Source: an uncultured virus (IMG/VR IMGVR_UViG_3300025881_001848) (lineage: Duplodnaviria > Heunggongvirae > Uroviricota > Caudoviricetes). From it: a DNA stretch of 64,000 bases. Of this stretch, positions 5,066 to 61,062 are shown one piece after another. The notes beneath the pieces are model-generated. The model worked only from the letters and a program-made list of their open reading frames with translations, was not told the origin of the DNA and searched no databases. Location of the stretch: IMG/VR virus record IMGVR_UViG_3300025881_001848. One strand, given 5' to 3'. The position numbers were made by a program, and so were the translations under genes. How positions within the stretch are numbered: the stretch's first letter is position 1; every line of letters starts with the position of its first letter.

Positions 5066-5143
5066 CATCCTTTTGTGGATAAATGATTGACAAATATTAT
5101 CATTTTGATATAATATTCATACTCAAACACACACGAGAACACT

Positions 5144-7625: not shown

Positions 7626-8735
7626 ATGCTAATAGCACACAAAGTTGAATTGCGACCTACCAAGTCGCAAGCTGAATACTTGAACAAATGTATCGGTCAT
7701 AGCCGCAATATTTACAACAACTTACTTCATCACTTCTCACAAGAGGGTGTTAAGTGGAGTAAAAAAGAGGCGCGTATTAAGTTCATGGAATTACGGGCGA
7801 CAGATTGCCAATACTATGACGAGATAAGTGCAGACTTCCTCCGTGAGTCGATAAACAACCTAGATAACGCTTACAAGCATTTCTTTCGCAGAGTCAAGAG
7901 CGGAAAAGGCAAGGTGGGTTACCCAACCAAGCGTAAGTTAGGCGTGAATGATATTTGCGCACTTCGTGATAAGAAAAAATTTACCGTTGATGATGATGGC
8001 CTTCGATTTGAGAAATTCAACAAGCGAAAAACACAATCACCAATAAAGTTACGTGAAAAGCTGCGATTCACTGGCATTGTAAAGCAGATGAATATCAGCA
8101 AGCGAGCAGGGAAATACTTTTGTTCGTTCCTTGTTGATACCGAAGATTACAACCCTAAAGATCATGATCGACAACGTAGTGTTGGTGTGGACTTTGGCAT
8201 TAAAGATTTAGCTATTTGTTCCAATGGTAAGAAGTTTAAGGCAAATCAAAAGCTGAAGGCTTCACTTAATAGACTGGCTAGAAAGCAGCGCAGGCTTGCA
8301 AGACAAGTCAAAGGTAGCAATCGCAGAGCGAAAACCAAGCAAGCGATCCAGAAGCTACACAAGCGCATTTCAGACCAACGAGCCGCAACGCTTCATGAAG
8401 TGTCTGATTACCTAACCCGTAGCTTTGACCGCATTGTTATCGAAGACCTTAACGTGTCTGGCATGATGAAGAATGGCAAGTTAGCGAGAGCGGTTGCTGA
8501 TTGCGGATTCTATGAGTTACGCAGACAGCTTGAATATAAAAGCCAATGGCGAAACTGTGAGTTGGTCATTGCCGATAGATGGTTTGCCAGTACCAAGACT
8601 TGTAGCCACTGTGGTTATAAGAACAATGATGTTGTTCTTGGTATGGATTCGTGGACTTGTCCAAGCTGCGGAACGTGGCACAACCGCGACTTAAATGCCG
8701 CTATCAATTTGGATAACTACCAGATAGCAGCATAA
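7626..8735 (+). CDS. tnpB: RNA-guided endonuclease TnpB
   Basis: N-terminal HTH (AHKVELRPT), RuvC motifs GVDFGIK / IEDLNV / RDLNAAIN, Zn ribbon CSHC...CPSC; AAGGAGG RBS. Confidence 0.95.
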   Translation: MLIAHKVELRPTKSQAEYLNKCIGHSRNIYNNLLHHFSQEGVKWSKKEARIKFMELRATDCQYYDEISADFLRESINNLDNAYKHFFRRVKSGKGKVGYPTKRKLGVNDICALRDKKKFTVDDDGLRFEKFNKRKTQSPIKLREKLRFTGIVKQMNISKRAGKYFCSFLVDTEDYNPKDHDRQRSVGVDFGIKDLAICSNGKKFKANQKLKASLNRLARKQRRLARQVKGSNRRAKTKQAIQKLHKRISDQRAATLHEVSDYLTRSFDRIVIEDLNVSGMMKNGKLARAVADCGFYELRRQLEYKSQWRNCELVIADRWFASTKTCSHCGYKNNDVVLGMDSWTCPSCGTWHNRDLNAAINLDNYQIAA

Positions 8736-9454: not shown

Positions 9455-9556
9455 TTACGGATAATATCGCAATATGTGATAGGTTTAAGTGAAATGAGGA
9501 AAGGCTGTCTTGATGGCGGCCTTTCAGTTTTCCACAACAAACAAATGGATTTGGCT

Positions 9557-10351
9557 ATGAACGTATTACGAAAAGCGTTGGCGGTTGCTTCACTATCGCT
9601 TCTTATGGCATCGGCGCATGCTGATATTATTTCACTTGATTGGAATGAAGCAGGGGACAATAAAGCCTTTCTTGATTCGGATGCAGGTCTTGAATGGCTA
9701 AAACTTGATGCGGCTAAGGGCATGAGTATTAATGAAGTGTCTGGCGAATTGGGTGATGGGGGCTTATTCAATGGTTGGCGTATAGCTAATAAAACGGAAG
9801 TGAGCAACTTACTCTTTCAACAAGTGATACGTTTAACGGATGCCGAATCTAACGGATTTTTCCTTAATACTAATGGCCGTTATTATGCTGATCAGAGCTT
9901 ACAAAGAACAAACGAAGCACGTCTAAATCACAATAGTGTAAAATTTGGATGGATGAACTTGTTTGGCGCAACCTATTCAACTTCGAGTACGACTCGGGTG
10001 GATGAACAAGACACATTAACTGGTTTATATGAGAATGATTCTATAGATCCTGCCATTCAGGGTGATATACTGCGAAGTATTACTAGGACAAGAAAGTACA
10101 ACAACTTTTATACGTATTACTCTGCGCGTATTGACCATGATTATAACGACGCTAACATCACACGTGACAGCAAAAGCGCCAACGCTAGTGTGTTTTTGAT
10201 ATCAGATGGCGGTGCGACGCTAAGCAGCCAACTTGATCCTACCTTAATGGAAAACAACCCTAATTATGCAACAGCGGTGTCGGAGCCTGGGGCAATGCTT
10301 TTATTGGGTGCCGGTTTATTCGGTTTGATGATGGCTAGACGCAAGGCGTAA
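9557..10351 (+). CDS. Secreted PEP-CTERM-type (VSEP variant) surface protein
   Basis: Signal peptide ending SAHA; C-terminus AVSEPGAMLLLGAGLFGLMMARRKA (sorting motif, TM, basic tail); start moved to ATG 9557. Confidence 0.85.
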   Translation: MNVLRKALAVASLSLLMASAHADIISLDWNEAGDNKAFLDSDAGLEWLKLDAAKGMSINEVSGELGDGGLFNGWRIANKTEVSNLLFQQVIRLTDAESNGFFLNTNGRYYADQSLQRTNEARLNHNSVKFGWMNLFGATYSTSSTTRVDEQDTLTGLYENDSIDPAIQGDILRSITRTRKYNNFYTYYSARIDHDYNDANITRDSKSANASVFLISDGGATLSSQLDPTLMENNPNYATAVSEPGAMLLLGAGLFGLMMARRKA

Positions 10352-10414: not shown

Positions 10415-10500
10415 AGGGCTTAAAACAAAATAAAAGATTGACAAAATATCTCAATTTGATAATATAACCCTATTGAAACGCACACACAAAGGCACATATT

Positions 10501-10761: not shown

Positions 10762-11079
10762 ATGACGCAACCACAAACAAACTTAGTCGGTGCTAACCCT
10801 ATCTTTATAAATGTCGAAGGTGCGCCGGTGACTATTGGCCAGAAACTTGAAATAAAGGATCTCATAGACCGCAGCACTCTTGACTATATTGATATAGGCG
10901 ATCATGATGACCTAGATGACGCTATCGATGCGCTGATCGGTCAACAAGGTGTCGTTGAGTATTTAGAATATGAATGTGGCTGTGGCCAGATTTATCCGCA
11001 CGAACCGATGATAGGTATTAAGCTTGATAGCGGTGATAAACACGAGTTTTGGTTTGAAGAATTAAAGGAAGTTTCCTAA
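10762..11079 (+). CDS. Hypothetical acidic protein
   Basis: AGGAG RBS; 105 aa. Confidence 0.7.
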   Translation: MTQPQTNLVGANPIFINVEGAPVTIGQKLEIKDLIDRSTLDYIDIGDHDDLDDAIDALIGQQGVVEYLEYECGCGQIYPHEPMIGIKLDSGDKHEFWFEELKEVS

Positions 11080-11498
11080 TGAGCGAGATTACCAGTACCC
11101 CATTTTCACAGTGGTCACAAAAAGGTGAAGCTGATCCCCATGGACTGCATTATCAAGGTGATGATGCAAAAATTGCGATGAAAGATAAACCTTGTAGAGT
11201 AGTCGCGGAGTTATTCCCTGCGATGGCGGGTACGTTGATGGGTATAGCGTGGTTAACGACCGCCAAAGAGCGTCTTAGATGGCTTTCTCGCAAGCTATAC
11301 CGCTTAAGTGATGAACATGTTGGCTTAAATGAAAGGCGTGCTCAAACGCCAAGAGGCGAGCTTACAGATGATGAGTTGGCGAATGCATTTTTCATGTCAG
11401 AAAGCAAAGATGATATGGCCGCAGGTAAGGCGCGTATTTTGTGGTTGTTGTCCGAGATAAAAGCGCTTGATGCGCCCAAGCAATTCGCTAAACAATAA
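11079..11498 (+). CDS. Hypothetical protein with internal duplication
   Basis: AKERLRWLSR versus GKARILWLLS; TAATG coupling. Confidence 0.65.
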   Translation: MSEITSTPFSQWSQKGEADPHGLHYQGDDAKIAMKDKPCRVVAELFPAMAGTLMGIAWLTTAKERLRWLSRKLYRLSDEHVGLNERRAQTPRGELTDDELANAFFMSESKDDMAAGKARILWLLSEIKALDAPKQFAKQ

Positions 11499-11703
11499 TA
11501 TGGTATTAAGGAAATTATATGGGTAAGCAATACGAGTCACTAGTGGAAATAAACACCACCGTAAGATTTGAAGATGATGGCAGTGGCCGTCCCCTAGAAG
11601 AGCAAGCTATTGAGCATGCAAAATTAATAAAAGCCATGCCTGATGATGTGCATATAGAAGTGAAGCCAAGTTGGGTAGAAGAGGTGGTGGAATAAGAGTA
11701 GTT

Positions 11704-11741
11704 TTAAGTGCTGACGCGCACGAATACTCGTCAGCACTTAA
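11704..11741. terminator. Strong hairpin between convergent transcription units
   Basis: TTAAGTGCTGACG...CGTCAGCACTTAA. Confidence 0.6.
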
Positions 11742-11783
11742 GGCTTTAAGCCGACTAAAAACTCCGTTTAGGGGGTTTTAGAC

Positions 11784-11855
11784 TTAACGGCGGTTGCCCC
11801 ATAATTGAGATCCACCAGCCACTTGCTTTTGGGTATTGACGTTTACTTTTTTCAT
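11784..11855 (-). CDS. Double-glycine leader peptide precursor 1: MKKVNVNTQKQVAGG|SQLWGNRR
   Basis: 23-aa ORF read manually; AGGTGA RBS; immediately downstream of the PCAT; three paralogs nearby. Confidence 0.85.
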   Translation of the reverse strand: MKKVNVNTQKQVAGGSQLWGNRR

Positions 11856-12028
11856 AATAATCACCTGTAATAAAAATTAACGCATTTTTAGATGCGACTT
11901 GCCGACATTTCGACAAGATTGACAAACAGCGCTTTTACGCCCTGCTGAATAAAAAAATATCACAATCTAAGCTTAATTCTTCGCCACACATTTGTTTTTT
12001 GTAACTGTTACGGAAAAAACACACATTT

Positions 12029-14152
12029 TTATTCCCTCTTAATGTCCAATAAATCAATCACCCTGTCGGCGGTGTCAATAGTCTCTTTCCTATGCGCGAT
12101 ACTGATGCGCGTAATATTCATTTCGCTCAGCGTGGCTGACACTTTTATTTCCATTTCAGGGTCGAGTGCGGATGTGGCTTCGTCCATAAAAAGAATAGTG
12201 GGATTGGCATATAAGGCTCTGGCAATCAATATTCGTTGCACTTGCCCACCGCTTAATGATGAGCTGTGACTACCCGCTATTAAAGTATGAAACTGCATGG
12301 GCATGTTTGTAATCTCATCGAAGATGTGTGCTTTTTTCGCGGCCTCATACACTCTTTTTTCATCAATGGTGGAGGATGCAAAAGCGATATTTTCTAACAA
12401 GCTACCGGATATTAACCCTTCTTGCTGACTGATGATAGCCACGTGTTTACGGTAATGCTGATGCCCGATTGACGTTAGCGGTACACCATCAATTAACACC
12501 TTGCCGGAAGAGGGGGTAATGACCCCTGCAAGCAGTTTCAGTAGTGTTGTTTTCCCAGCACCGGACTGACCGGTCAACACAACATGTTCGCCCTGGTTGA
12601 TAGTGAAGCTAATATTATCTAACACAGGAGTGTCGTTGCCATCATAGGTATACGACAGTTGATTGACGGAAACTTCTCCTTTAATGGCTTGTTTAATGTT
12701 GTTATCGCCTAACATATTGTCTTCTACCGATTCGATTTCAATGTCGGATAAGCGGTCTAAATCGACGCGCAATATTTTAAAGGTCAAGATGTTATCAATC
12801 AGTGATTTACTTTGTGTAGAGAATATTTCGCGGTAGGCAAAAAACGCAAACATCATGCCTAATGTGATCTCTTGATGCAGCACAGCCATAGTGCCCACGT
12901 AAAGGATAATAAGCCGCTCAGCATGCCCAAGTAGTTCATTATTACTTGTGTACCACAGCTTGAGTTTAAGCAATGAAACATTCGCATTCATCTTCTTTAA
13001 GTAAAAGGCTTTCCAGTATTGGTAACGAGCGCTTTCTTTGCCGTATAATTTCACTGCAAGCATGTTACTGATAGTTTCGAAAAAAGTGTGCGACTCGCGA
13101 ACACTCTCGGTAAAGAAGGTGCCGGCATGCCTGATTTCTTTTTTCACGAGGTAGGTGCGTATAAGGGCATAGACTATCAAAAATACAATCGATATTGCGG
13201 CCAATTTAGGCATGAATAAAAACATAATGGTTAAGGTGATGATGGACATTAGCCCGTCAATTAAGCCGCTAACTAACTGTTCGGTGAAGCTTTCTTTGAG
13301 CCTATCTAGGACTCTAAATTTAGTGTTGATGTCCGCGATGTTACGCGATTCAAAAAACGAAATGGGAAGGCGCACCAAGCGCTGAAAGAAGTATGAGGAA
13401 AACCCTGCATGCCAGTGGTAACCTAGCACGATTGAACCCCACCCTCGCAGCATTCGCACAAGAAAGAGGAATAAGGCCAGCCCAATGCCGCCGGCAATGA
13501 TCCCCTTGATATTGGTTTCTTCCCCCGTGGCAATAAAGTCATCCACAATAAGTTGAGTGATTAGTGGAAAAAGCATGATGATAAGCTGGGCGGCGAAGGT
13601 CAGCAATATAAGGTTAGTTAATCCTTTAGCGAGTCCGTGAGATCGTGAAAAAAGACCGGTAAAAGTGAGGGGTTTTGCACTGAGCGCGTTTTGCTGTTCC
13701 CAGTGGGTTTTGGTGGTTTCAAAGTCATCATTTTGGCCTTTCAATACTGACATCGCATAACCGGTGAAATGCTTTGAGAATTCATCGTGAGATAGGGTGC
13801 GCTCCCCGAGTGCTGGATCGTGAATGGTGCATGTCTTTTTGGTGACTGACTTAAGTGCAACGAAGTGCGTCAGATCCCAATGGATGACCGCAGGTAGGGG
13901 TAGTTCGTGAATGTGTTCCATACCAAGCTCGTACACGTCCCCGACCATCCCTTCGTTTTCGCACAACGTGGATAGGTCGTGCATGGAAGAGCCTTCCTGA
14001 CCTAGTCGGTATTTATTGCGCAGCAGTGGCAGCGTGACGGGGATCCCAAAGTGGTTGAAACACATAGTCACTGATGCTAAGCCGCATTCGGCTATCTCGC
14101 TTTGCAGTACAACGGGCATTTTCTTGGTGTTACTGAAAAATTGAATATCCAT
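12029..14152 (-). CDS. Peptidase-containing ABC transporter (C39 peptidase + TMD + NBD; CvaB/MchF-like)
   Basis: QSEIAECGLA (Cys), HWDLTHFV (His), IHDP (Asp); Walker A GQSGAGKTT, LSGGQ, ILFMDE, IAHR; likely start ATG 14152 (MDIQFF). Confidence 0.95.
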   Translation of the reverse strand: MDIQFFSNTKKMPVVLQSEIAECGLASVTMCFNHFGIPVTLPLLRNKYRLGQEGSSMHDLSTLCENEGMVGDVYELGMEHIHELPLPAVIHWDLTHFVALKSVTKKTCTIHDPALGERTLSHDEFSKHFTGYAMSVLKGQNDDFETTKTHWEQQNALSAKPLTFTGLFSRSHGLAKGLTNLILLTFAAQLIIMLFPLITQLIVDDFIATGEETNIKGIIAGGIGLALFLFLVRMLRGWGSIVLGYHWHAGFSSYFFQRLVRLPISFFESRNIADINTKFRVLDRLKESFTEQLVSGLIDGLMSIITLTIMFLFMPKLAAISIVFLIVYALIRTYLVKKEIRHAGTFFTESVRESHTFFETISNMLAVKLYGKESARYQYWKAFYLKKMNANVSLLKLKLWYTSNNELLGHAERLIILYVGTMAVLHQEITLGMMFAFFAYREIFSTQSKSLIDNILTFKILRVDLDRLSDIEIESVEDNMLGDNNIKQAIKGEVSVNQLSYTYDGNDTPVLDNISFTINQGEHVVLTGQSGAGKTTLLKLLAGVITPSSGKVLIDGVPLTSIGHQHYRKHVAIISQQEGLISGSLLENIAFASSTIDEKRVYEAAKKAHIFDEITNMPMQFHTLIAGSHSSSLSGGQVQRILIARALYANPTILFMDEATSALDPEMEIKVSATLSEMNITRISIAHRKETIDTADRVIDLLDIKRE

Positions 14153-14165
14153 ATTCTTAAGGTTC

Positions 14166-15338
14166 CTAGTGAGCGTGTCCGAAGTTAAAGAAGGTCGAGA
14201 ATAACGATTTTTCGTCAATCACAATGTCGGAATTAATGGTCATGCCGGTAGTGAGTTTTACTTCACTGGGTGACTGTTGAATGCTGGCTTTCACGACGAA
14301 ATATGCGCCTTGGCTTAGGTTGTGCGACGTGTTATTGAGCATCTTACTTGGCACCGGCAGTGACGATACGCTCTTAATGGTGGCTGTTGTTGCCCCGTGT
14401 GTGGCCGATGGGTATGCTTCCACGTTCAAGCGTATTAACATGCCTTCTTGTAGGGTGCGGTATTGGTTTGCGGGAATATACAATATCACTTCTGATGTGT
14501 CTCTTGAGGTAGATAGTGTTAGTACTGATTGTCCCGCCGATACGGGTGTGTTTGTGTCAGTGAGGATATTGTCTACAGTGCAGTCGCATGGTGAAATAAG
14601 GGTGATCCCTTTTTGCAGGTAATCCAACTTTGTTAGGTGGCGTTGTAACTTCTCGGTGTTACCATCTTTCTCATGGTGGTAGGCGTCAGATATATTGTTT
14701 TGCTGCATGTTGATGGCGTATAGTGCCGCTTGCTCTCTAATTAACGTACTCTCCATGCCGTTAACAATACGTTTTTGCGCTTCTACATCACGCATAGCAA
14801 TACTGCCTGTTTGTGCGCTTTGTGTGTACCGCGTCAGGATGTCTTTTTCAACCAATAGGTTTTTTTGAGCTTGTTTGATGATACGATTCTGGTGTACTTG
14901 TTGGCGCTCAATATTGGCTATGTTACTGGCAAAGCTGGCATCCATTTCAGAAAAGTGAGATTGAAGCGTGTCAATCTGAATAGTGATGTCCGCGATATCA
15001 TTGTCTGTTTTGTTTTGGTCGCGATCCATCAGCTTAATAAGAGCTTGGCCACGAGTGATATTTTCGCCCTCACTGACCATAATATTAACGGCGTTCATCC
15101 CAGGATCTGGCACAGTGATTTGATGGTAGTCTTTACCGGCGAGGACTTCGCCTGTCGCTTTAATGTGCACGGGTAAATGAATAAGGTTAAGTGCAGCTAT
15201 AGCAAAGCTCAAGAAGGCGAGAGCTGTAAGGGTATAGGTCGTAAAACTAGGGGGTGACTGTACTTCAAAAGGTTTATTGCCGCTGGTAAAGAAGTTTTCT
15301 ACCGCTTCTTTTCTGAAGGTCGCTTTTTCATTTTGCAT
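14166..15338 (-). CDS. HlyD-family membrane fusion (secretion adaptor) protein
   Basis: FRKEAV N-terminus, single TM, coiled coil, ISPCDCTV, AYP..HG and LTTGMTINSDI motifs; operonic with the PCAT. Confidence 0.9.
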   Translation of the reverse strand: MQNEKATFRKEAVENFFTSGNKPFEVQSPPSFTTYTLTALAFLSFAIAALNLIHLPVHIKATGEVLAGKDYHQITVPDPGMNAVNIMVSEGENITRGQALIKLMDRDQNKTDNDIADITIQIDTLQSHFSEMDASFASNIANIERQQVHQNRIIKQAQKNLLVEKDILTRYTQSAQTGSIAMRDVEAQKRIVNGMESTLIREQAALYAINMQQNNISDAYHHEKDGNTEKLQRHLTKLDYLQKGITLISPCDCTVDNILTDTNTPVSAGQSVLTLSTSRDTSEVILYIPANQYRTLQEGMLIRLNVEAYPSATHGATTATIKSVSSLPVPSKMLNNTSHNLSQGAYFVVKASIQQSPSEVKLTTGMTINSDIVIDEKSLFSTFFNFGHAH

Positions 15339-15432
15339 ATTTATGCCTAAAGTCCATTTTAGATAACGAAATTTAGCACATTAGATGATGTTGTCGGCAA
15401 TAGTTTGAAATTTTACTAGCGAGGAGAGGGTC

Positions 15433-15457
15433 GTTGGTAGCTGCGAGAGCTACCAAC
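15433..15457 (-). terminator. Hairpin after precursor 2 (terminator or stabiliser between peptide gene and hlyD)
   Basis: GTTGGTAGCT-GCGAG-AGCTACCAAC. Confidence 0.55.
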
Positions 15458-15468
15458 AAGTATGCGGC

Positions 15469-15579
15469 TTAATCAGGATCGTGAACCGGACCTCCACAAC
15501 CACATGCAGCTGATGAGCACTGCCAGTTATTGCCTGCACCTGAAACTTGCTTTTGTTTTTCTGCGCTTACTTTTTTCAT
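15469..15579 (-). CDS. Double-glycine-type (GA) leader peptide precursor 2: MKKVSAEKQKQVSGA|GNNWQCSSAACGCGGPVHDPD
   Basis: 36-aa ORF read manually; AAGGT RBS; same leader family; directly upstream of hlyD. Confidence 0.85.
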   Translation of the reverse strand: MKKVSAEKQKQVSGAGNNWQCSSAACGCGGPVHDPD

Positions 15580-15754
15580 AGTATTTACCTTTAAAGTAAT
15601 GGTACAACCCCTCATTGGATTGAATTTATAACCTATCATAATTTTCTGAGTTATTACCTTTGGTGATTGTTTTATATATCATTTTGATAAATTAAATGTT
15701 ATAATGATAATATCAAATAACCCTTATCGGGCACGTAATTTATTCGGAGTATTT

Positions 15755-17137
15755 ATGGCAGCGGCCGCAAAAATATCATTTTTGTGCGATGAGTGTGGGG
15801 AAAACCATGCGCGTTGGGTAGGACAGTGTACATCTTGTAAAGCATGGAATTCTGTTGTGGAGTTCAAAGGCGCAAAAGCCCCGAAAAAGAAAGCGGGGTC
15901 TGGCAAGGTTGGCGGGTATGCAGGTACCACTGGTGAGAGTGCAAAAATTGATGCAGTTAAATCTCAAGAGTATAAACGCATTGTGACCGGCATTGGCGAA
16001 TTTGACCGTGTGGTGGGCGGGGGAATAACGGTGGACAGTGTTAATGTTGTATCGGGCGACCCTGGGGCGGGTAAAACCACTTTATTAAGTAAAGTAATGG
16101 GTGAGATAAGTCAATCCATGCAAAGTTTGTACGTAACTGCTGAGGAAGCCGCTTCCGCTTATAAAGACAGATTCAAGTCTCGCCTAAAAGTGAGTTATAA
16201 AAATGAAAACTTTAATTTACTCTCGGAATATGATGTTGAGGCTATTTTGGCTGAGGCAGAAGCATTAGATGTGCGCTTTATGGTGGTAGATTCAATTCAA
16301 GCCTTAAAGTGCGATGATTTTACAGGCGTGGCCGGTTCTATATCACAGGTAAAGGGGTGTGCTCAAATGTTGAGCCGCTTTGCAAAACAGCATAATGTGA
16401 CGATGATCATAGTCAGTCACGTAAATAAGAATTCTGAGATGGCCGGACCTAATATACTCAAGCATATTGTAGATGGTACTTTTCATATCGAGGTAAATGA
16501 CTCAAGTATTAGAACGATAAGACCCACCAAAAACCGTTTTGGTGATGTGGACACTGTGGGTTTATTTCAGATGACCGAACAAGGCATGATGTCTGTGGAT
16601 AATCCATCAAAGATCTTTTTGTCTAGCTTGGCTGAAGATGTATCGGGATCAGCGATATGCTGCATTCGCGATGGTAATCGTAATTTACTGCTTGAACTGC
16701 AATCATTGGTGACGGACGCTGAAGGGGAATTTCCGCAACGGGTTTGTGTTGGCTTGAATATGAATAGGCTCAAGATGATTACGGCAATATTGCGTAAGCA
16801 CGGTCGGCAGCGATTTAGTCATGATGTGTACGTTAATTTGGTGGGCGGGTTGAAGTTGCCAGAGACCGACACGTCAGCGGATTTATCAATGGCCGCGTCA
16901 CTTGTCAGTTCATTGCAAGATAAGCCTTTACCTAAAGACATGTTGTGGTTAGGTGAGTTAAGTTTAAGTGGTGAAGTCAGGCCTGTGAGTGGTGGTGTAC
17001 AGCGTGTGCAAGAAGCGATTAAACATGGTTTCACCAGTATTGTGGTGCCGCATGCTAACTACCATAAAAAGATGGAAAGCGCGGGGGTTACGATTACGAA
17101 GGTAAAGACGATTGTGGATGCGATTAGTTTAATATAA
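15755..17137 (+). CDS. radA: DNA repair protein RadA/Sms
   Basis: Zn finger CDECG...WVGQCTSC, Walker A GDPGAGKTT, VVDSIQ, KNRFG, Lon-like C-terminus GELSLSGEVR; start at ATG 15755 with GGAG RBS. Confidence 0.95.
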   Translation: MAAAAKISFLCDECGENHARWVGQCTSCKAWNSVVEFKGAKAPKKKAGSGKVGGYAGTTGESAKIDAVKSQEYKRIVTGIGEFDRVVGGGITVDSVNVVSGDPGAGKTTLLSKVMGEISQSMQSLYVTAEEAASAYKDRFKSRLKVSYKNENFNLLSEYDVEAILAEAEALDVRFMVVDSIQALKCDDFTGVAGSISQVKGCAQMLSRFAKQHNVTMIIVSHVNKNSEMAGPNILKHIVDGTFHIEVNDSSIRTIRPTKNRFGDVDTVGLFQMTEQGMMSVDNPSKIFLSSLAEDVSGSAICCIRDGNRNLLLELQSLVTDAEGEFPQRVCVGLNMNRLKMITAILRKHGRQRFSHDVYVNLVGGLKLPETDTSADLSMAASLVSSLQDKPLPKDMLWLGELSLSGEVRPVSGGVQRVQEAIKHGFTSIVVPHANYHKKMESAGVTITKVKTIVDAISLI

Positions 17138-17232
17138 AGGTGCTGTGAATTTTTTAGGTTTGCAATACAGGAGGTGGGCGAGAGGTGATGGCTACCGGAA
17201 TAGCCATCATCTTTTCACTGGCAAGTAATATA

Positions 17233-17304
17233 CTAGTCAGTTGTATCCCAAATTTGAGATCCGCCAGTTACTGCTTTTTGAGTTGCTGCTGTTACTTTTT
17301 TCAT
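17233..17304 (-). CDS. Double-glycine leader peptide precursor 3: MKKVTAATQKAVTGG|SQIWDTTD
   Basis: 23-aa ORF read manually; GAAGG RBS; downstream hairpin. Confidence 0.85.
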   Translation of the reverse strand: MKKVTAATQKAVTGGSQIWDTTD

Positions 17305-17524
17305 AATAGTAAAACCTTCTATTTAGTTGTGTACTCTAATTGAGCTTTAAAAAAATATCATGTTGTTTGTGTTAATCCGTTTATTGACAGAAGCAATGAG
17401 GCTTATCGTTGAATAAACACACTTTTTTAATTTTGATATAGAGGGATTGTGAGGTTTAGGTTTGCGTAATTTAGGAGGCTAACAAGGTTGGGGTGATGGC
17501 TACCGAGATAGCCATCGTTTTTGA

Positions 17525-17596
17525 CTAGGTAACTGTGCGCCAAAGTTGTGAACCGCCATTTACTGCTTTTTGAGTTGCTGCTTTTACTTTTTTCAT
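17525..17596 (-). CDS. Double-glycine leader peptide precursor 4: MKKVKAATQKAVNGG|SQLWRTVT
   Basis: 23-aa ORF read manually; GAAGG RBS; downstream hairpin. Confidence 0.85.
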   Translation of the reverse strand: MKKVKAATQKAVNGGSQLWRTVT

Positions 17597-17841
17597 AATA
17601 GTCTAGCCTTCTGTTTACGTTAATACTCGAATTGAGTGTTAAAAATATATCATGTTGTTGGTGTCAATCCGTGCCCTCACGATACCCATCAAAATAACTA
17701 TTGATAAAACACACTTTTTTTAAACATTGGTCTAACAATAATTACTTTACCTGTCGTTAAAACCACCCTTATAAATAAAAATGATTGACAAATCAATTCA
17801 ATATGATAGTATTACCTTACTGAAATCAAAGGCGCACACAC

Positions 17842-18486
17842 ATGACTATGAACACAAACAACACACCTAATTATGAAGCTACTTTACCCGAAGTCGCGTC
17901 CTTGATAACTGAAAAACAAGCCACTGGTGAAGAAGTGCCGGTGGTAGTGCTAGGTAGAGATGATCTCACCAATGTGATGAAAGCTGCGGTTGCCCAGTAC
18001 CTACCCATGTGGGGTGATCGTGCCATCATAATGATAGATTTAATGGAGACAGTAAGGGCGCAAGATCTCGCTAAGCGTGATATCACAGACCTAGAGTGGG
18101 CAAGGCTGAACACTATTGGTTTCTTTGTGCTAAACGAAAGCGGTGACTATGTAGATATTGACGCAGAATCAATTTATGAAAGAGACGATCAAGGCTGCCA
18201 TAAATCATTTAACCTAAACATGTCGATTAATCGTGATGAAAATACGATATCTTTCCAGTTTGGCGAAAATAAGGGTGAAGGATTTGATGAGTATATTTGG
18301 TTTGCATTTAAGGTGGGTATGGATGTAGAGGCTGAATTGTTAACGCAGGTAGCGGCATTGAAAATTAAAGCGACCTCCGTGCACCAAGAGAATTTTTGTA
18401 ATGCACTTAAGTTTCACTCTGAGGCATTCAGTAACATATTATCATCTGCCTCATGTGTGGGCACGTGGTTAAACGAAAAGGTATAA
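17842..18486 (+). CDS. Hypothetical protein
   Basis: Follows repeated promoter (17785). Confidence 0.7.
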   Translation: MTMNTNNTPNYEATLPEVASLITEKQATGEEVPVVVLGRDDLTNVMKAAVAQYLPMWGDRAIIMIDLMETVRAQDLAKRDITDLEWARLNTIGFFVLNESGDYVDIDAESIYERDDQGCHKSFNLNMSINRDENTISFQFGENKGEGFDEYIWFAFKVGMDVEAELLTQVAALKIKATSVHQENFCNALKFHSEAFSNILSSASCVGTWLNEKV

Positions 18487-18490
18487 GTGT

Positions 18491-18832
18491 ATGGGCAGTA
18501 TTTCCGAGCAAGCTGATTATTTTGCGGCCGTGCTATGGTGCACCCCAATGACCCCTGCTGAAATGCGCAAACACGAGGCGTTTAAAAATCGTTCTGTGGA
18601 CGCTATTATTATGCTGCTTGAACGGCTAGATAGAGTGTACACAAAAGGTGAGCGTTACCATGTAAGCCAGAAGGTCGCTTTACGCTTAGGGGATAGTGTA
18701 TCTGTGCGTGTTGAAGTGAATTGTCGCAAATGCAAAGGTACAGGGATAACGCCGTCACATAGTGTTCTTGGTACTGCGAACTGGCCTTGCGAAAAATGCA
18801 GTGGTGACGGTAAAAAAATATTACGTGAGTAA
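18491..18832 (+). CDS. Hypothetical protein with DnaJ-like CxxCxGxG zinc-finger pair
   Basis: CRKCKGTG...CEKCSGDG. Confidence 0.65.
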   Translation: MGSISEQADYFAAVLWCTPMTPAEMRKHEAFKNRSVDAIIMLLERLDRVYTKGERYHVSQKVALRLGDSVSVRVEVNCRKCKGTGITPSHSVLGTANWPCEKCSGDGKKILRE

Positions 18833-18923
18833 TCAGTACATAAAGTAATAATTGAATAAAAATGATTGACAAATTATGTTATTTTGATAATATAGCTTCA
18901 TACACACAACGGAGCAAATCCCC

Positions 18924-34700: not shown

Positions 34701-35729
34701 TTAAGCCGCAATTTTAACTTGGTTCCGACCGCCATCTTTAGCTTTGTATAACGCCCCATCAGCCCTTTCCACCATACTTTCAAGCGCATCACCTGCCACT
34801 TTTTTAGTTACCCCAAAAGATGCGGTGACATTTAACGTGACGCCATCTTTCTTCTGGCTTTTGAGATTTGTATTGGCAAGCTTTTTACATAAGGACTGTG
34901 CAACACTGTTAGCAGCATCAATATTAGCATTACGGCATAACACGGCGAACTCTTCACCTCCTAACCTAAAGGCGGTTAAACCACCGCCTTCGCATTCCCT
35001 ATTGAGAAATTTACCCACAAACTTAAGTACTTGGTCACCCAATACATGACCATACGTATCATTAAAGGATTTGAACTTATCGATATCCATCATGATCAAG
35101 CTAATGTCTTTGTCATCGTTCAAAGAGACGAAATCTTCATACACTGTATTAAACTGACGTCGGTTGTATAGACCCGTTAGAGGATCTTTAATAGCCTCTT
35201 CTCTACTTTCTTCAAGCTTCGCTTTTAGTGTGGCTATCTCAGATTGTGCTGACACTAAACATGTTTGAAATTTAGCATTAGACACACACAATGAATCAGC
35301 ATTAGCCTTTACTGTATTAAGCTCGGATATCAGCTCAGCATCCACCGCCTTACCAAGCACTTTGTCAACACCTTCCATCAGCACACTAGCAAAGCTATCG
35401 GACACCTTGGATGTTTCGTCCATAGAGTCAGATAAGCCCTCTACCACTTCTGAAAATTTATCATTTAGCAGCGAAAACTCTTGCTCCTTTGACTCATCAA
35501 CGTCGCTTACGTAAGTTGAAAAAAGTTCATTAGTGACGTTAGGTGGAAAAGTACCGTGTGCACCAATAGCGTTGTCCATCGCTACGTTGAGAGCCGGTTT
35601 CTGTTTAGAAAAATACGCATACCAAAGCGCGTAATTCAATGGGTTCGGTGGTATTTTGTGTTTAGCCATCATCGGTAGAGCTAGGCGCAAGTTGCTTGCG
35701 GCATAATCAGATGTGTCAAAAAGCTTCAT
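34701..35729 (-). CDS. Diguanylate cyclase (GGEEF), VdcA-like
   Basis: DPLTGLYNRR, DIDKFKSFNDTYGHVLGD, RLGGEEF, RADGALYKAKDGGRN; N-terminal P.P.NY.LWY.Y. Confidence 0.93.
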   Translation of the reverse strand: MKLFDTSDYAASNLRLALPMMAKHKIPPNPLNYALWYAYFSKQKPALNVAMDNAIGAHGTFPPNVTNELFSTYVSDVDESKEQEFSLLNDKFSEVVEGLSDSMDETSKVSDSFASVLMEGVDKVLGKAVDAELISELNTVKANADSLCVSNAKFQTCLVSAQSEIATLKAKLEESREEAIKDPLTGLYNRRQFNTVYEDFVSLNDDKDISLIMMDIDKFKSFNDTYGHVLGDQVLKFVGKFLNRECEGGGLTAFRLGGEEFAVLCRNANIDAANSVAQSLCKKLANTNLKSQKKDGVTLNVTASFGVTKKVAGDALESMVERADGALYKAKDGGRNQVKIAA

Positions 35730-35781: not shown

Positions 35782-36315
35782 CTAACAGCCATCTGTTTCA
35801 TAGGTGATGACAGGTGCTGCGCCAACGCCGGTAGAAGACCTATAAATAAGGTGGCATTTTTTATCTAAAAAGGGTCGTTGGTTGACGTAAGCCCCACTTC
35901 TTCCCATGGCTTTCTCTGTTCCTACGTAAAATACCTCTTGATTATAAAGTGTAGACCACGAATATTCAGTTTTAAAGTCATCACTCATTGCCTCTGATAT
36001 CCCGCCAGTGCGACTCCCGCTTGGGTAACCGTAGGTAGTTTGTACATCATTGGTGCCATCACCATCTAAGTCAACGCCACTACTAGCTAACTTGTGGGTG
36101 CCTGCAATAACCGATTTAGCGTAAACTAAGTTGCCAGCCGATTTCATCGCTCCGCCAAGTGATTTAAGTACAGCTTTGTTTGCATCACTGCTCATATCTA
36201 TAAAGCGAGGGGCAGCAGTCACGGCCAGTATACCTAATATAACGATAACAATGATTAACTCAATTAGTGTAAAGCCATTTTGGGCACGGTTACGCCCTGT
36301 GTTGCTAGGTAACAT
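35782..36315 (-). CDS. Type IV prepilin, MSHA MshA-like
   Basis: QNG|FTLIELIIVIVILGILAVTAAPRF, YGYP motif, C-terminal Cys pair. Confidence 0.88.
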   Translation of the reverse strand: MLPSNTGRNRAQNGFTLIELIIVIVILGILAVTAAPRFIDMSSDANKAVLKSLGGAMKSAGNLVYAKSVIAGTHKLASSGVDLDGDGTNDVQTTYGYPSGSRTGGISEAMSDDFKTEYSWSTLYNQEVFYVGTEKAMGRSGAYVNQRPFLDKKCHLIYRSSTGVGAAPVITYETDGC

Positions 36316-52355: not shown

Positions 52356-52588
52356 TGATGGATATGATTGCGTGGATAAGGCAGATACGCAGTGAACTTA
52401 AGTGCGGTGTCGTGCAATTTGAAGCCCTTCAAAACGCCGTAGAGATAACATTAGGTCGTTATGTTGACGGTGAGTTACATAGTATGGTCGAGCGCATACT
52501 GTTTGATGAGTTAGATGAAGCCGGTGATGTTTGTCTTGAACTTGTTGTTTCACAATTTAAAGCAAAATTTCCGCAGTTAAAATACTAA
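52355..52588 (+). CDS. Hypothetical protein
   Basis: Translational coupling. Confidence 0.55.
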   Translation: MMDMIAWIRQIRSELKCGVVQFEALQNAVEITLGRYVDGELHSMVERILFDELDEAGDVCLELVVSQFKAKFPQLKY

Positions 52589-52659
52589 AAAAGATTGACA
52601 AATAATATCATTTTGATAAACTGTGTGTATTGAAGAAATCCACACACAAGGCGAATATT

Positions 52660-60848: not shown

Positions 60849-61062
60849 ATCAATCCTTGATAACAATTGTTTAATCCGTTAAGGCAATGGTACTCGAATT
60901 GTTTAAAAAAACCTTTTTGCACCACATAAGGTGCATAGCGTCTCTTTTTAGGGTTATCAGTGCGTTTAGGTGGATAATTAAAGAAATAAAAGATTGACAA
61001 ATTAGTTCATTTTGATAAAATAGGTTTATTGAATTCGCACACACGCACACAAGGTATTTATC

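Follow-up and report, generated by a model that had tools for sequence, protein, structure and literature searches.

Peptide pheromones exported by ATP-binding cassette (ABC) transporters with a peptidase domain (PCATs) are textbook knowledge in Gram-positive bacteria; in Gram-negative bacteria, to our knowledge, such transporters are tied almost wholly to toxins of the microcin type, with RaxX and the cargo of HetC as rare exceptions. Here we describe a locus on a stretch of 64,000 nucleotides from an uncultured virus of the Caudoviricetes (IMG/VR record IMGVR_UViG_3300025881_001848), the whole of which is called the window below, where a PCAT and an adaptor of the HlyD family are accompanied by four open reading frames (ORFs) of 23 to 36 aa, named W1 to W4, each beginning with a double-glycine leader. 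As far as searched, these ORFs belong to a real, conserved and previously undescribed peptide family, and our results show that this family is physically tied to the clade of PCATs to which the exporter belongs.

Those class II microcins that have been verified measure tens of residues when mature, and TolC is commonly unlinked from the genes of the exporter. The class II microcins of Enterobacteria (MccV with CvaAB-TolC, and MchEF) and the bacteroidetocins have, like the present locus, an HlyD protein and a C39 PCAT, with a channel that is unlinked there and apparently also here, and they likewise have cargo genes by the exporter with a double-glycine signal of 15 residues (PMC12219008). The present system departs from the microcins in that its PCAT is only about 35% identical to theirs, its predicted cores have 6-14 residues (21-27 in a long class) and are not small proteins, no immunity gene was found beside a peptide, position -7 of the leader is Gln instead of Leu, and the head of the core after the cut site is conserved.

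Among Gram-positive bacteria, pheromones of the ComC/BlpC type have a length of 17-27 residues, and a histidine kinase and a response regulator are encoded alongside them. ComC (CSP) with ComAB, BlpC and the induction peptides of bacteriocins are unmodified short peptides that likewise have a double-glycine leader; a dedicated PCAT cuts it off and exports them, and signalling is listed as a function of PCATs in passages of PMC6363468 and PMC7018657. Here, in contrast, the cores have 6-14 residues, the HlyD adaptor marks a diderm system, no kinase or regulator is consistently linked, and the window holds no linked kinase and regulator as ComCDE or BlpCHR do. For ComX of the ComQXPA system of Bacillus, the sections available of PMC5331326 describe an invariant Trp as the single common denominator of variable pheromones, one of which is a hexapeptide, and a precursor of 53-58 residues without double-glycine leader that is served by the prenyltransferase ComQ and the sensor ComP. 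The variable short peptides with one shared Trp are alike in both cases (compare AFMWEE and AFMWEY of the metagenome locus L003), whereas neither a ComQ-like gene nor a PCAT-independent route is seen in the window and the related loci.

Two cases show that PCATs of Gram-negative bacteria, cyanobacteria included, can serve signalling. In Xanthomonas, RaxX is described, in the portions seen of 10.1101/442517 and PMC6637879, as a non-bactericidal peptide signal that is matured and secreted by the PCAT RaxB, and for HetC of Nostoc, likewise a PCAT, the export of a peptide signal has been proposed (PMC10986499). RaxX has a precursor of 60 residues, a linked sulfotransferase and a plant receptor, whereas the peptides here are much shorter and no modifying enzyme was found at the loci scanned; HetC carries an extra cNMP-binding domain and its substrate is not known, and the family here differs from it. 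As in the arbitrium (AimP) and Rap-Phr systems, an apparently mobile replicon here encodes very short peptides that are probably secreted. Those systems, which belong to Firmicutes, use Sec export, extracellular trimming, import by Opp and a linked cytoplasmic receptor, whereas here the route is a PCAT, no linked receptor was found, four peptides lie on one element, and no TPR or HTH-receptor domain of the RRNPP kind is encoded near them. Altogether, as judged from the sequence, the export module would work like that of class II microcins or of the ComAB type.

The peptide family and its tie to the exporter

The preliminary description had reported four ORFs on one strand at this locus, and all of them are present on the minus strand, which is also that of the PCAT and HlyD genes. 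W1 (11784..11855, 23 aa) joins the leader MKKVNVNTQKQVAGG to the core SQLWGNRR and lies 173 nt 3' of the PCAT stop codon; W2 (15469..15579, 36 aa) joins MKKVSAEKQKQVSGA to GNNWQCSSAACGCGGPVHDPD, lies 130 nt upstream of the HlyD gene and represents a long class with Gly-Ala; W3 (17233..17304, 23 aa) joins MKKVTAATQKAVTGG to SQIWDTTD; and W4 (17525..17596, 23 aa), which joins MKKVKAATQKAVNGG to SQLWRTVT, is a tandem duplicate of the W3 cassette at a spacing of 292 nt. The leaders follow the pattern MKKVxxxxQKxVxG[GA] over 15 residues, and a six-frame search of the 64-kb window with MKK.{5,12}G[GA], among ORFs of at most 80 aa, gave exactly four matches, namely W1 to W4. Gene callers give W2 as an ORF of 56 aa, P0002, at 15469-15639. 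A hidden Markov model (HMM) of 23 columns scores its eight training members at 46-54 bits, with a runner-up of 5.9 bits among 3,690 frames, and in five loci outside its training set it finds four peptides that are new, three of them at 41.8-53.3 bits and the fourth, which is divergent, at 21.6 bits; the runner-up there has 6.9.

The family now counts 15 distinct peptides, in which start, stop and frame are preserved, from at least 11 different contigs. In all 15 the leader ends in G-G or G-A, at positions 14-15 (in genome G403 at 15-16), and Val stands at -4, and 14 have Val at -12 (at -13 in G403). The head of the core is SQ[LI]W in 10 of them, and the Trp at core position 4, pointed out earlier for the four window cores, is found there and more widely, in 14 of the 15. 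In fact the cores fall into three otherwise unlike classes, SQLW, AFMW and GxxW, of which this Trp is the sole common residue. Predicted core lengths are 8, 8, 8 and 21 residues in the window, far below documentable microcins, as had been claimed; elsewhere they are 6-14, and 27 in the metagenome locus L004. Two thirds of the peptides (10/15) have hydrophilic cores of 6-9 residues, and the tail behind the head varies from 2 to 10 residues with a drifting sequence and maintained hydrophilicity. The longer W2 core is rich in Cys and Gly, with 3 Cys, 1 His and 2 Asp, and its closest relative is the 42-aa peptide of L004. The word "undescribed" in the preliminary description also holds up, since W1 to W4 match no Pfam family (E up to 10) and no NCBIfam family (E up to 1), and a text search of the literature found no description of the family, the supplementary tables of microcin surveys, which possibly list such ORFs, lying outside that search.

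When the eight SQ[LI]W genes are compared in 28 pairs, which are not independent and consist of tiny sequences, the 19 codons of leader and head have a proportion of synonymous differences (pS) of 0.67 and of nonsynonymous differences (pN) of 0.16, with a ratio of 0.24. For example, leader and head show pN 0.00 at pS 0.94 between genomes G408 and G547, and pN 0.02 at pS 0.55 between G001 and G402; moreover, the invariant V4, K10, V12 and G14 are each written with 2-4 synonymous codons. In leader and head W3 and W4 are 91% identical, against 67% for the upstream flank, 42% for the tail and 47% for the downstream flank, and the DNA flanking the peptide genes is not conserved between loci. Purifying selection acts on the leader and on the four-residue head of the core (mostly SQLW), and because the protein is fixed while the synonymous sites are near saturation, the mini-ORFs are almost certainly translated.

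Relatives were found by several routes. A PCAT scan of genome contigs gave one locus, L001, from a metagenome-assembled genome, where HlyD and a PCAT of 70% identity are followed 478 nt downstream by MKKVSTQKQKQVTGG with the core SQLWRKGS. A metagenome scan with the back-translated leader pattern, which covers the leader only and does not demand the Trp, gave two more: L003, with a tandem of ...GG-AFMWEE and ...GG-AFMWEY, then a terminator, HlyD and a PCAT of 53% identity, and L004, a contig of 2 kb where ...GA precedes the 27-residue, Cys/Gly-rich core GVIWDGGFVGGDYCDHRDPYIQTKNKS. When an alignment with the 42-aa peptide of L004 at its head served as a profile against 5.8 billion predicted proteins, five proteins came back from five candidates, three already known and two new (...GG followed by SQLWGNARFMPD and by SQLWRQKGLGAD); an exhaustive HMMER search of 1.84 billion representative proteins returned the identical five, two of them only within over-long ORF calls. 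Within the genus of L001, a PCAT of 51-70% identity is present in 6 of 37 genomes, and the carriers' cores include SQLWRDKR (G540), SQLWRGQN (G402), SQLWRHSPSGFNSN (G408) and SQLWKNNGD (G547). The later profiles included the Trp column and nevertheless recovered the G403 member, which has none; its gene, with the core IPIIIDL, at L025 8762-8833 (-), follows the most divergent PCAT of the genus. Each of five carrier genomes has exactly one credible family peptide by whole-genome profile search, and G001 has one by the DNA pattern.

Comparing positions, a family peptide adjoins the exporter in seven of the eight PCAT loci (the window, L001, L003, L022, L023, L024 and L025), at 0.1-0.7 kb from the operon and either 3' of PCAT or 5' of HlyD; L001, L022 and L025 also have their family peptide in the slot 3' of PCAT that W1 occupies. 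In G402 the sole family peptide (L032, 9946-10017, +) lies on another contig than the PCAT (L021, 8900-11008, -); that gene stands 0.6 kb after a gene for a multi-PAS protein of 1516 aa, and a TauE gene fills the site downstream of the PCAT. The blanks in wider samples, namely only G001 for the peptide pattern in a 401-genome sample of its order and only G001 for the PCAT in a 151-genome sample of its family, are weak, as is that of the genome-contig scan, because the carriers of the genus were missed in them. Among the viral contigs of IMG/VR, the peptide pattern had no match, the PCAT alignment had no relative among 59 pattern matches, RadA had one weak partial match and a 594-aa ORF had none. 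A blastn search with 11000-18500 met no phage and a single plasmid match, of 77 nt within the ABC domain, and tblastn of the PCAT against phages found nothing over 34% identity.

The PCAT gene (12029..14152, minus strand) encodes 707 aa from a conserved ATG, with a C39 peptidase, a 6-helix transmembrane ABC domain and an ATPase (Peptidase_C39 PF03412, 1.2e-29; ABC_membrane PF00664, 1e-24; ABC_tran PF00005, 1.9e-33); the ORF reaches a TTG at 14218, and the ATG at 14152 is the start common to the relatives. It aligns over its full length with PCAT1 (residues 10-701 to 11-696, E 6.7e-65), and its matches in the PDB include ComA structures (8hf4, E 2.2e-54). The Gln, Cys, His and Asp of the C39 domain line up with those of LahT150 (6mpz, E 8.5e-17) and PCAT1 (4ry2) and are invariant in three clade members, the Cys column being the residue changed to Ala in chain 7n87; with the ABC domains on the same chain, the PCAT is intact, as first reported. 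Its clade is compact and counts 31 clusters at 41% identity or more, of which 15 lie at 63-75%, three lie at 52-57% and 13 at 41-48%; below these comes a plateau at no more than 39% of generic transporters of the CvaB/MchF/RaxB type. The HlyD-family periplasmic adaptor (14166..15338, minus strand, 390 aa) is encoded 13 nt upstream of the PCAT start, matches HlyD_3 (1.6e-06) and, under its cutoff, TIGR01843 (2.2e-18), and adjoins the PCAT in all eight PCAT loci. A search around the exporter of the window, of L001 and of L003 turned up no larger double-glycine ORF, which speaks against the different, large substrate that had been raised as a counter-explanation.

Putative transcription units of the peptide genes

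A purine-rich run like a Shine-Dalgarno sequence precedes the ATG of each mini-ORF, and a stable hairpin follows each gene with z from -2.97 to -5.87, in agreement with what had been reported. The one after W1 (11704..11741, -32.9 kcal/mol and z -5.87 for an 84-nt stretch) is shared with a convergent plus-strand ORF at 11519-11695. Those after W2 (15431..15459, -16.9 kcal/mol, z -4.00), W3 (17178..17218, -18.3 kcal/mol, z -3.31) and W4 (17495..17516, -13.2 kcal/mol, z -2.97), on the minus strand as is that of W1, are not canonical intrinsic terminators because the U-tract is missing; a U-tract 3' of the peptide-gene hairpin occurs only in the relatives of L001, L003 and L004.

Upstream, an extended -10-like element is found on the minus strand as TGATATTTTTTT at 11951..11962, 96 nt before the W1 ATG, where it may be the own promoter of W1, again as TGATATTTTTTT at 17349..17360, 45 nt before the W3 ATG, and as TGATATATTTTT at 17641..17652, 45 nt before the W4 ATG. 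The string TGATATWTTTTT has four exact copies in the window against 0.11 expected, three of which stand on the coding strand 45-96 nt before W1, W3 and W4; behind the fourth (31941) no family peptide is found. Farther upstream on the minus strand, the motif AAATGTGTGTTT at 12017..12028, right after the PCAT stop and 162-173 nt upstream of W1, is a candidate regulator site, and AAAAGTGTGTTT stands at 17415..17426 and 17707..17718, 111-122 nt upstream of W3 and of W4. Its shared form AAAWGTGTGTTT has three copies in the window when one mismatch is allowed, all exact and all before W1, W3 and W4. We infer that TGATATWTTTTT and AAAWGTGTGTTT are promoter or operator elements of these three genes; since W3 and W4 are duplicated, the shared elements amount to effectively two independent cases. 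A scan with consensus sigma-70 and terminator models performed at chance (14 promoters vs 14.8 and 6 terminators vs 5.7).

A full-length radA/sms gene on the plus strand (15704-17137; TIGR00416, 446 bits vs a cutoff of 403; phrog_26214, 2.9e-77), unmentioned in the preliminary description, parts W3 and W4 from the exporter operon. As it lies between W2 and these two genes, W3 and W4 form units of their own, at 1.9-2.3 kb upstream of the operon start. Generally, the peptide genes appear to be transcription units of their own, since a hairpin follows each and W1, W3 and W4 share promoter-like motifs that are rare elsewhere in the window. A role as attenuator or upstream ORF was rejected, because nothing that could be regulated lies downstream of W1, W3 and W4, all of which end in a hairpin. 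The divergent ORF next to W4 (17842-18486) matches no family, has a poor Atlas model (predicted local distance difference test score, pLDDT, 0.39) and gave no usable match in an Atlas search.

Signal, toxin or another role

In the reading that we favour, ultrashort double-glycine precursors would be exported by the adjacent PCAT-HlyD pair and their short cores would serve as diffusible signals, a proposal that we hold tentatively and at slightly less than even confidence. The C39 domain would bind the 15-residue leader, with its Val at -4 and -12 and Gly-Gly or Gly-Ala at -2 and -1, and would cut after the second Gly or Ala, as known PCATs do; the core would then leave the cell by way of the ABC domain, the adaptor HlyD and a TolC-type channel encoded elsewhere. 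The predicted products are the hydrophilic 8-mers SQLWGNRR, SQIWDTTD and SQLWRTVT and one Cys/Gly-rich peptide of 21 residues; in the short peptides the conserved head with its Trp would be the recognised part, by a receptor encoded elsewhere. That W1 to W4 are genuine substrates of the PCAT is very probable; given this, it is an even question whether the peptides act as extracellular signals rather than by killing. According to the parts consulted of PMC6363468, 13 leader residues and a core of four residues suffice for cleavage by LahT150, and this protease is highly tolerant at the P' positions, from which follow two points: such tiny cores are plausible PCAT substrates, and the Trp at +4 is not explained by the known needs of the protease. 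The reasons for favouring a signal are the small size and hydrophilicity of the cores, the want of an immunity gene, the single chromosomal copy in each carrier of the genus, and a pattern like that of ComX.

The search for partners covered 73 of the 95 listed ORFs of at least 90 aa in the window, the remaining 22 mostly overlapping longer ones. Among these 73 there is no outer-membrane factor or TolC and no kinase or TPR/HTH receptor; no prenyltransferase, polyprenyl-synthase-like proteins included, and no radical SAM enzyme was found in the window ORFs (E at most 0.01 for 62 of them and at most 1e-4 for the others), nor any prenyltransferase or maturase in the ORFs scanned around seven related loci, and no small conserved ORF of immunity type, membrane type included, stands beside any family peptide. 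This bears out the preliminary description, by which the window has no recognisable TolC, receptor, modification enzyme or immunity gene. In an all-vs-all comparison of ORFs from nine loci, only PCAT and HlyD are common to all eight PCAT loci.

Several observations weigh against the signalling proposal. No co-occurring receptor or enzyme, as was to be looked for near homologous exporters, is consistent over the nine loci. What stands near the cassette differs from genome to genome: a giant Reg_prop/Y_Y_Y hybrid kinase and a response regulator with GGDEF and EAL domains abut it in two of six genomes of the genus (G001 and G408), and a TonB-dependent receptor lies two genes from it in G402 and G540. 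Position -7 is Gln in all 15 members, where the PCAT substrates treated in the passages seen of PMC6363468 have Leu. The G403 precursor, MKKVENTQEQKAVTGG with the core IPIIIDL, has no Trp, a leader of 16 residues and a PCAT of only 51% identity. The long Cys/Gly-rich cores of W2 and L004 (21 and 27 residues) look bacteriocin-like, and on plasmids the PCAT is best matched by exporters of microcins, of the MchF/CvaB type, at 35-36% identity, those of MchF type being its closest characterised relatives. Lastly, the four tail codons of the eight SQ[LI]W genes show pS 0.69 and pN 0.71 over the same 28 pairs, with a ratio of 1.03, and the tail evolves about neutrally, which gives no support for a co-evolving specificity. 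Of the "allelic pheromone" proposed in the preliminary description, the signal stands as the favoured function, whereas a role of the tails as specificity determinants is not supported, their pN/pS being near 1 and their identity near that of the non-coding flanks. This tail pattern is equally compatible with neutral drift and with diversifying selection, and a picture in which the head is the active part fits no worse than one of a fixed handle with a specificity-bearing tail.

Other genes near the cassettes may be mentioned here. The kinase and cyclic di-GMP genes of L001 were considered as a receptor and rejected, the same pair being found in G402 without the cassette; the second L001 kinase has, in our own reading of its sequence, no obvious membrane-spanning stretch. 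In G403 (L025), the cassette is 2 kb away from a receiver domain and a His_kinase domain of the LytS type; altogether, kinases or regulators of differing kinds are near it in three of six genomes of the genus (G001, G408 and G403), and none is common to all. A 312-aa protein without known identity is also syntenic with the cassette in G402 and G540. GGDEF proteins occur in four loci, flanking the cassette in L001 and L023, near the L032 peptide, and in the window at 34701-35729; little weight is given to this co-occurrence, because such proteins are numerous in these bacteria. The one in the window (minus strand) is a diguanylate cyclase with an N-terminal part of 175 residues of no known family, and beside it, at 35782-36315 (-), lies a gene for a type IV pilin-like protein (N_methyl).

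The main rival to the signalling proposal, which we consider somewhat unlikely, is a cocktail of mini-bacteriocins: tiny class II microcin-like antibacterials, or a W2 toxin with 8-mer helpers, that would leave by the PCAT-HlyD-TolC route and kill competitors of the host. The plasmid relatives and long cores named above speak for it, as do the automatic JGI names of clade members (CvaB/MchF/RaxB), several paralogous cargo genes at one exporter, and a precedent for a phage-borne bacteriocin PCAT, since a match in a Bacillus phage record of the SPbeta type is annotated as "sublancin transporter". TonB-dependent receptors are uptake routes of microcins on target cells, and the synteny seen in G402 and G540 is a further point in its favour. 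A 15-residue double-glycine signal beside a PCAT is the layout of bacteroidetocins and microcins in the parts available of PMC12219008. However, at 6-9 residues the hydrophilic cores of most family members lack the length to span a membrane, small membrane ORFs of immunity type were not found conserved next to any of the peptides, and the carriers in the genus have a single peptide each, within whose core only the four-residue head is conserved. A peptide of the ComX kind, ribosomally made and modified on the Trp or the SQLW head (by prenylation or a cross-link) by an unlinked enzyme with the PCAT removing the leader, would account for a Trp kept across three core classes when C39 domains tolerate any P' residue, and an unconstrained tail is compatible with an active head; the shared Trp of ComX is its prenylation site in the passage concerned of PMC5331326. 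Yet no maturase domain was met in the scanned ORFs of the window or around the seven related loci, PCAT and HlyD are the only genes that the loci have in common, and the G403 member lacks the Trp, and we regard this explanation as improbable.

It may further be supposed that the mini-peptides are no message at all and instead prime or regulate the exporter, act as decoys or, in the case of W2, bind metal, the real cargo lying elsewhere. Selection on leader and head only, the unlinked peptide of G402, by which cargo can lie apart from its exporter, and the Cys and His residues of the W2 core would suit such a role, for which we know of no precedent; a peptide that adjoins the exporter in seven of eight loci, the want of any other double-glycine ORF nearby and the one family peptide per carrier genome make it very improbable in our judgement. 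Finally, the ORFs are very short and W3 and W4 are a tandem DNA duplication, as might be expected of chance ORFs or of a non-coding repeat without peptide product; this we find hardly credible when the protein is fixed at near-saturated synonymous sites (pS 0.67-0.94, pN 0-0.16) and 15 members retain frame, start and stop between flanks that are not conserved. As an extension of the signalling proposal, a genus of marine Gammaproteobacteria might use an unmodified, PCAT-exported Trp-containing SQLW oligopeptide as its signal between cells, and a phage-like giant replicon of a related host, with three variants of the signal and one longer peptide, might have captured the exporter and could eavesdrop on, imitate or jam the communication of its host; in this specific form we think the idea quite unlikely.

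The host replicon and the meaning of the system

The replicon that carries the window resembles a phage of very large size or some other large mobile replicon, mostly without known genes. The window has 41.7% G+C and no tRNA, its ORFs are mostly without any family, and PHROGs matches cover 22 of 63 ORFs, eight of them strong and none in the structural phage category. Besides radA, it carries a thymidylate kinase, a C5 methylase, an HNH endonuclease and TnpB; the last, of IS605 type (7626-8735, +), has OrfB_IS605 and a Cas12f1-like TNB domain and lies 3 kb from the locus. A strong sigma-70-like promoter repeat, AAAAATGATTGACAAAT-N12-TTTGATAATAT, is present in more than 20 copies ahead of most small ORFs, on both strands (for example at 5079-5123, 10430-10474, 17777-17821, 18858-18902, 52587-52631 and 60986-61030). 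The peptide genes do not use this repeat, which is shared by contigs of equal depth in the metagenome run X1, the probable source; such a repeated promoter pattern is typical of large phage genomes. The ORF P0002 is recorded on two contigs, the longest of 564,925 b, from which a replicon or contig of at least 565 kb follows. The DNA of 11500-18000 occurs in three marine metagenome runs, and since two of them, X2 and X3 (no listed differences, depth 1-3), belong to other studies, the element recurs in the sea. No close relative of the replicon was found in IMG/VR or in phage and plasmid collections. A gene at 18491-18832 (+) encodes 113 aa with two CxxCxGxG-like zinc knuckles and sub-threshold matches to the DnaJ central domain and Anti-TRAP. 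PEP-CTERM-anchored proteins are encoded at 9476-10351 (+) of the window and at L025 2375-2998 (+), near the G403 cassette, and suggest a host with an exosortase system.

The "Gram-negative mobile element" of the preliminary description is plausible. In the related genus the system is chromosomal and single-copy; for this reason it is not in itself a trait of mobile elements. The element here carries its own exporter and four peptide genes, against a single-copy chromosomal locus in that genus.

The family escapes annotation because its genes are 21-29 codons long, and the regular expression and the HMM now allow it to be annotated. Moreover NCBI names the PCAT cluster P0018 for a cultured species, Agaribacter flavus, and the lineage is apparently cultivable, so that the system should be open to mass spectrometry and genetics. 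As toxins, the peptides would be the smallest bacteriocins exported by a PCAT that are known to us. If they are signals, the system would mean peptide communication in marine Gram-negative bacteria that has been captured by a large mobile element, and an SQLW signal in particular would be a case of peptide quorum sensing in a Gram-negative lineage.

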